Of a stretch of 440 nt of DNA, positions 37-440 are shown in pieces. The stretch lies in assembly GCF_003334385.1 (NCBI RefSeq), contig NZ_QOWN01000182.1; one strand, given 5' to 3'. The notes under the pieces were generated by a model. The model was not told where the DNA came from, did not search any database, and worked only from the letters and a program-made list of their open reading frames with translations. Each line of letters opens with the position of its first letter. Position 1 is the stretch's first letter. The stretch is from Escherichia coli. GTDB taxonomy: Bacteria; Pseudomonadota; Gammaproteobacteria; Enterobacterales; Enterobacteriaceae. The position numbers and the translations under genes are program-made.

Positions 37-440
37 ATGACATTTAAACACTACGATGTGGTCAGGGCGGCGTCGCCGTCAGACCTTGCGGAGCGACTGA
101 CACAAAAACTGAAGGAGGGGTGGCAGCCATTTGGCAGCCCTGTCGCCATCACGCCTTATACCCTGATGCAGGCCATTGCGGCGGAAGGTGATGTCACCAC
201 ACCTGTGGTGGTGAAGCCGTCGGATGGAGAAGGCACAGTTATCAGCACCACCAGCGAACCGGAGTATTACTTTGTTGTTGTTCTGGCGGGGCAGTCAAAC
301 TCAATGTCTTTTGGTGAAGGGCTGCCGCTGCCGGAGACATATGACCGTCCGGACCCGCGTATTAAACAGCTGGCGCGTCGCAGTACGGTGACGCCGGGTG
401 GTGCCGCCTGTAAATATAACGACATCATTCCGGCAGACCA
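37..440 (+). CDS. Prophage-type sialate (9-O-acetyl-neuraminate) O-acetylesterase, NanS-p-like; 5' portion only (DUF1737-like N-terminal module plus start of SGNH/SASA esterase domain), 3' end outside window
   Basis: Seen in sequence: frame +1 is open from ATG 37 to the window edge (134 codons), an in-frame TGA at 4-6 closes it upstream, and no ATG/GTG/TTG lies in frame between 7 and 36, so ATG 37 is the only possible start. Strong SD 4 nt upstream. Product call rests on recognition of the N-terminal sequence and the LAGQSNSMSFG block typical of sialate O-acetylesterase family SGNH hydrolases; this is recall, not a database hit. Confidence 0.75.
   Translation, partial: MTFKHYDVVRAASPSDLAERLTQKLKEGWQPFGSPVAITPYTLMQAIAAEGDVTTPVVVKPSDGEGTVISTTSEPEYYFVVVLAGQSNSMSFGEGLPLPETYDRPDPRIKQLARRSTVTPGGAACKYNDIIPAD
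248..255 (-). other. Chi octamer (5'-GCTGGTGG-3' on the minus strand; CCACCAGC on the plus strand)
   Basis: Seen in sequence: exact 8/8 match to the E. coli RecBCD Chi sequence on the minus strand. It only acts as a recombination hotspot in a host whose RecBCD recognises this octamer, and host identity is inferred, not shown. Confidence 0.45.

Follow-up and report, generated by a model that had tools for sequence, protein, structure and literature searches.

A single copy of the recombination octamer Chi lies on the minus strand of a prophage esterase gene of Escherichia coli, within the stretch of 440 nucleotides that was analyzed here and that is referred to throughout as the window. The octamer is a genuine Chi and very probably an incidental one: it is one way of encoding Thr-Thr-Ser in the linker that joins two domains of the protein, and it was passed on with a single family of linker sequences. 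What is of use here is a correction. Chi exerts its effect at and past its own position along the path that RecBCD travels, and the side on which the initial annotation had predicted its effect was therefore the wrong one.

The esterase gene and the octamer within it

The window contains the 5' part, 134 codons on the plus strand at 37-440, of a NanS-p-like prophage esterase gene whose full product is a protein of 659 amino acids (WP_126502649.1, named 'SASA family carbohydrate esterase' in RefSeq). The long open reading frame begins with an ATG at 37-39, and a Shine-Dalgarno-like GGGAGG can be read from the sequence at 27-32, 4 nt 5' of this start codon. Pfam places a DUF1737 domain at residues 3-50 (43-186) and the start of the SASA esterase domain at residue 81 (277-440 within the window, with a GQSNS motif encoded at 289-303). 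Between the two lies a linker of residues 51-80 (187-276) that is rich in Ser, Thr, and Pro. In the full-length protein, the SASA domain spans residues 81-276 and is followed by a DUF6645 domain at residues 508-616. With DUF1737, SASA, and a C-terminal domain, and with its location in a lambdoid prophage between Q and the lysis genes, the gene is a member of the NanS-p family. The family comprises prophage sialate O-acetylesterases that have been described as diverse in each of their three domains (PMC10462455), and for the gene of the window a putative 9-O-acetyl sialate esterase activity is assigned by homology. Related copies are widespread, occurring in 1,175 of 5,426 complete E. coli genomes (∼6,273 copies) and in 339 phage records, mostly of Stx-converting phages. 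The initial annotation's supposition of several paralogues per genome is borne out by a median of 5 places, with 6 in strain NCTC9112.

Positions 248-255 of the window read CCACCAGC, the exact reverse complement of Chi (5'-GCTGGTGG-3'), which places the Chi on the minus strand. There is no other match to Chi on either strand of the window, and allowing one mismatch adds none. On the plus strand, the octamer forms the greater part of codons 71-73, (a)CC ACC AGC, which encode Thr-Thr-Ser within the peptide ISTTSEPE. The exact match, its strand, and its place among the inter-domain linker codons, all of which can be seen directly, had been correctly recognized in the initial annotation. The window is 100% identical to the chromosome of E. 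coli NCTC9112, so that the host is E. coli and GCTGGTGG is the relevant Chi sequence, as had been presumed.

The activity of Chi depends on the sequence to its 3' side, a run of A/G at positions 4-7 being favored and a run of T/C disfavored (PMC5041463). On the Chi strand, this flank is 5'-TGCTGATAAC-3' (238-247 of the window, minus strand), and the predicted zone of nicking by RecBCD lies in it, a few nucleotides 3' of the octamer. Positions 4-7 of the flank are T, G, A, and T, a mixed sequence that falls between the preferred and the worst runs.

Two calculations bear on whether the presence of the octamer calls for any special explanation. When the window was shuffled 200 times with its dinucleotides preserved, Chi arose in only 5 cases. 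In real sequence, however, at least one Chi is held by 10.4% of 440-nt windows of the prophage, 20.9% of those of its int-to-lysis half, and 7.4% of those of the chromosomal flanks. The octamer is thus not commoner than chance and is unremarkable for this DNA, in keeping with the earlier remark that a single Chi is to be expected. We also considered whether it might simply be the product of preferred codons. This account was dropped, since the spelling ACC ACC AGC for Thr-Thr-Ser has a probability of only ∼2% under the codon usage of the prophage itself, and was replaced by one of chance and descent.

The prophage and its Chi map

The match in NCTC9112 lies on the minus strand at 4592661-4593100 of NZ_LR134079.1, within a lambdoid prophage of ∼49.4 kb inserted between yjjG and prfC, and the esterase gene is flanked there by genes for the Q antiterminator and for holin and lysozyme. 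In the coordinates of the extracted prophage locus (L001), this directly observed context places the octamer at 20248-20255 (prophage position 19248). The lambda cos 12-mer, GGGCGGCGACCT, is present without mismatch at L001 25781-25792, ∼184 nt upstream of the terminase small-subunit gene, which indicates that the packaging end is lambda-like. The octamer therefore lies ∼5.5 kb to the left of cos, that is, from the right end of the virion map. The early-left operon includes homologues of yfdP, yfdQ, and yfdR together with phrog_583, and among its annotated genes PHROGs identifies no recombinase, exonuclease, or Gam/anti-RecBCD function.

Several other features of the element may be recorded. 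Beside the integrase gene, it carries as cargo the anti-phage defense sirtuin Dsr1 (1275 aa, L001 2724-6551). Its lambda-type head genes include one for a gpD-like decoration protein of its own (L001 31695-32042); a 2026 preprint on phage phi24B describes the DUF1737 domain of the esterase gp84 as a capsid decoration on a T=9 head. The portal gene (L001 28572-30163) is annotated as frameshifted and several small early genes as partial. These annotations may reflect a defective prophage or, alternatively, indel errors in the long-read assembly.

The map of Chi sites in the prophage, likewise a matter of direct observation, is strongly asymmetric. There are 13 in total. The top strand (that of the late genes) has 10 of them, and the bottom strand has the other 3 (prophage positions 11401, 14206, and 19248), of which the third is the site in the window. 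All 13 fall in the first 21.7 kb, a segment that extends from int past nanS-p almost as far as the holin gene. No Chi is present in the 24.5-kb lambda-like structural half, although Markov models expect 1-3 top-strand sites there. In the int-to-lysis arm, the 10 top-strand sites compare with a Markov expectation of 0.7-3.9, and the 3 bottom-strand sites, with an expectation of 0.3-0.95, are slightly in excess. A RecBCD enzyme entering at cos would first meet a top-strand Chi 3.1 kb away. One top-strand Chi is at L001 19011, ∼1.2 kb to the left of the window site, and within 13 kb of the latter there are twelve other Chi sites.

The chromosomal flanks show the same bias, with 9 Chi on the top strand against 3 on the bottom. 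Their GC skew is positive, and along the locus the genes from yjiL to trpR follow the order of the right replichore of MG1655. Taken together, these three properties suggest that the top strand is the leading strand.

This distribution agrees well with what has been reported for phages. According to Zheng et al. [quoted passage not shown] Bobay et al. (2013) found Chi to be concentrated from the replication genes to the terminase (PMC3784561). The prophage of the window conforms to the published description of phages without a Rec module, with 10 top-strand and 3 bottom-strand sites, all of them between int and the lysis genes near the right end.

Abundance of Chi is not peculiar to this element. 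In the ±3-kb flanks of the gene in 68 unique IMG/VR alleles, 158 top-strand and 32 bottom-strand sites were counted in 313 kb, or approximately one per 2 kb, a density indicating that the Q-to-lysis region is generally rich in Chi in these prophages. Within the gene itself, top-strand Chi sites are present at positions ∼150-200, near the linker, in five unique IMG/VR alleles and at ∼800-900 in ten.

Polarity of the site and the predicted action of RecBCD

RecBCD recognizes Chi on the 3'-ended strand, approaching it from the 3' side; it then nicks a few nucleotides 3' of Chi, and RecA is loaded onto the single strand that lies 5' of Chi (PMC5041463). For a Chi on the minus strand, the 3' side corresponds to lower plus-strand coordinates, and RecBCD must therefore enter from lower coordinates and move in the direction of transcription. 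This much is as the initial annotation had it, and it fits the established manner of reading Chi. The annotation went on to place the stimulated recombination upstream of the octamer, in the DUF1737 module and the 5' flank, and here it chose the wrong side: since RecA is loaded 5' of Chi, the recombinogenic strand runs from 248 to higher coordinates, through the esterase domain and beyond, and junctions are to be expected at or to the right of the site.

The window Chi does not face the usual entry of RecBCD, the opposite orientation being that of 10 of the 13 Chi in the prophage and 9 of the 12 in the flanks. It is unreadable by RecBCD that enters the right cos end and moves leftward. It is equally unreadable by RecBCD that moves toward oriC (from ter to ori) after fork collapse in a lysogen. 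We infer the behavior of RecBCD at the window site to be as follows. The only enzyme able to read the octamer would be one that comes from a break to its left and travels with late transcription. It would be expected to nick near window positions 242-244, and RecA would be loaded on the strand from position 248 onward, which carries the esterase domain followed by the lysis genes and cos. Exchange junctions, if any, would lie at 248-255 or to its right. The DNA on the approach side, including the DUF1737 module, would be unwound or degraded and, in a completed repair, copied again from the partner; it would in this sense be replaceable, with the breakpoint situated elsewhere.

Distribution of the octamer among alleles

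Seventy-nine alleles from IMG/VR were aligned at the place of the octamer. Exactly 40 carry CCACCAGC, among them genes whose products are only ∼60% identical overall. A further 15 of the 79 have CCACCAGA, a single-base variant that changes Ser to Arg, and the remainder have unrelated linkers. The octamer-bearing alleles all possess one and the same family of linker sequence, AGY-RCC-ACC-AGC-GAM, so that a single origin followed by descent is enough to account for every one of them. As a separate observation, the patch of linker at window 187-247 (gene positions 151-211) is hypervariable, with at least six unrelated versions, whereas its neighbors on both sides are conserved.

Two phages are instructive here. 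PhiR5_1, which is Rec+ Gam+, has an allele 97% identical to that of the window; over 50 kb, the equivalent site is the sole Chi of its bottom strand, and its top strand has six. The presence of the octamer in such a phage indicates that it travels with the gene and not with the Chi strategy of the phage. In 933W, the linker is different and has no Chi at this place; in the first 50 kb of its 61.7 kb there is a single Chi, on the top strand.

Mosaicism and the position of breakpoints

The esterase family is strongly mosaic. Over the first ∼500 nt, the alleles are 82-100% identical, with identity in the remainder falling to ∼55-65%. Clear junctions are seen in the upstream flank, at gene positions 120-180, near 240, at 300-324, at 960-1020, and around 1080-1440. 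Variants of the DUF1737 domain switch between gene positions 120 and 180 in three loci (L021, L066, and L071).

This mosaicism shows no sign of a focus on the octamer. Distinct end-points of near-identical tracts number 13, 13, 10, and 8 in successive 100-nt intervals over gene positions 0-400, a profile that is dense but flat. Among 57 haplotypes, the proportion of four-gamete incompatible site pairs across the octamer is 0.32-0.33, a measure that is confounded by recurrent mutation. This is a local minimum, the lowest value between -100 and +580, with lower values only beyond approximately +600; for comparison, the proportion is 0.6-0.7 around the start codon and ∼0.5 at gene positions 360-520. 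Two apparent signals were examined and set aside. A small pile-up of end-points at gene positions 197-223 is confounded by the hypervariable patch (181-211), which abuts conserved sequence, and is accompanied by no four-gamete excess. A dip in identity at 241-300 might have been taken for a junction to the right of Chi. Nearly all divergent alleles show it, whether or not they have the octamer, and it thus represents a block that is particular to the L001 group and not the product of recurrent crossing over.

Paralogues resident in the same genome were compared using IMG/VR prophage contigs from the same genomes. Perfect tracts in two such pairs span the octamer, from -208 to +323 in L009 and L024 and from 109 to 244 in L004 and L064. 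The right-hand ends of these tracts lie 104 and 25 nt to the right of the octamer, where a Chi-dependent junction would fall. The first pair (genome IMG 643348545) has a further point of interest: after the perfect tract that ends at +323, identity of the two genes drops to only ∼60% at 324-975 and is nearly complete again from 975 to the end, a central block of the esterase domain having been swapped.

A junction footprint at or distal to the octamer was not seen in the natural alleles (57 haplotypes, a modest sample of limited power). Chi acts over kilobases, and with twelve other sites within 13 kb a signal on the scale of 100 nt would in any case be non-specific. The initial annotation's expectation that breakpoints would cluster near the octamer thus found no enrichment to support it, with end-points that are flat, a four-gamete minimum, and tracts that run across the site. 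The lack of a local recombination signal is itself directly observed. The interpretation in the initial annotation is partly supported: the family is mosaic and present in multiple copies, but the orientation of the site is inactive for the usual routes of RecBCD entry and it has no local signal.

Weighing the explanations

The model in the initial annotation, of a working hotspot that concentrates exchange between prophages within the DUF1737 module and 5' flank and leaves breakpoints upstream of 248-255, is very improbable. It has in its favor the strong mosaicism of a multi-copy family, the existence of some upstream junctions (the DUF1737 switches at gene positions 120-180), and a correctly stated direction of RecBCD entry. 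It is contradicted by the established polarity of Chi, which puts junctions at or distal to the site, toward higher coordinates, and by an orientation that is inactive for the usual routes of RecBCD entry. Nor do the alleles behave as the model would have them: the four-gamete profile is lowest at 140-240 with no rise just upstream, the density of end-points is flat across 0-400, and alleles that lack the octamer, whether they carry CCACCAGA or unrelated linkers, have the same identity profile. Somewhat less improbable, though still unlikely, is that the octamer is a selected, rightward-facing Chi that rescues breaks to its left, for example in the region of moron insertion between Q and nanS-p, and promotes the exchange of esterase and lysis genes between prophages. 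Its occurrence in approximately half of the sampled alleles across diverged lineages, the low probability of its spelling under codon usage, the slight excess of bottom-strand Chi over Markov expectation, and the two same-genome tract ends 25-104 nt to its right would all be consistent with such a role, as would the top-strand Chi at L001 19011, which makes of the two sites an inward-facing pair. Set against this are the confinement of the octamer to one linker family, for which one origin and descent suffice, the 15 alleles with CCACCAGA and the 933W-type alleles without the octamer, the lack of any rise in incompatibility on either side, the predominance of the top strand around the gene (158 to 32), and a 3' flank that is only middling. 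A more elaborate proposal, that a selected inward-facing pair brackets the point of moron or stx insertion between Q and nanS-p, with breaks repaired from paralogous prophages in a way that drives the swapping of cassettes and esterase modules, merits very little credence.

A function unconnected with Chi, such as an RNA or DNA signal or a constraint imposed by proteolytic processing of the linker, is just as hard to credit. A preprint proposes cleavage of the NanS-p linker at SSP-type motifs in phi24B, and the local peptide here is ISTTSEPE; however, the phi24B motif SISSP is absent from the linker of the window, linker sequences differ widely between alleles, and no observation points to a nucleic-acid signal. 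There remain four features that could be held against the incidental reading, namely the bottom-strand excess, the ∼2% spelling, retention in half of the alleles, and the positions of the tract ends, and none of them goes beyond what would follow from common descent of a conserved 5' block. Weak selection on the octamer, or occasional real activity, is a rival of low probability. The preferred explanation accordingly remains that of a Chi that arose by chance in one version of the linker and has since been carried along with it.

As for what this means, a single Chi in E. coli prophage DNA is expected, and the one in the window faces the less useful way; in itself it matters little. If the octamer were a selected hotspot, it would bear on the way in which resident prophages shuffle their NanS-p and stx-flanking modules, a role of which the alleles show no sign. 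Nothing in these observations is new, the Chi motif, the esterase gene family, and the phage-wide pattern of Chi having all been described already.

Comparison with known systems

The octamer of the window is identical to the canonical Chi of E. coli, and it lies in E. coli DNA, where the RecC subunit of an enzyme arriving from lower coordinates would read it on the 3'-ended strand. It departs from the canonical case in being situated on the lagging-strand, minority side, in facing away from the right cos end, and in its mixed 3' flank.

The prophage in NCTC9112 shares with phage LLS early-left genes of the yfdP/yfdQ/yfdR type. Unlike the published Chi-bearing phages (PMC12315714; PMC3784561), the element described here is a chromosomal prophage, known from its sequence, whose portal gene is annotated as frameshifted.

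Compared with 933W and phi24B, the window prophage is without stx, and the linker it encodes differs in sequence type from the one in 933W, where Chi is missing at this place. In other respects, the esterase gene resembles the NanS-p esterases of these phages (L0105 of 933W and gp84 of phi24B), with the same architecture of DUF1737, SASA, and C-terminal domain and the same location between Q and the lysis genes, and, as described for that family, it is one of several diverse and mosaic copies within a single genome (PMC10462455).
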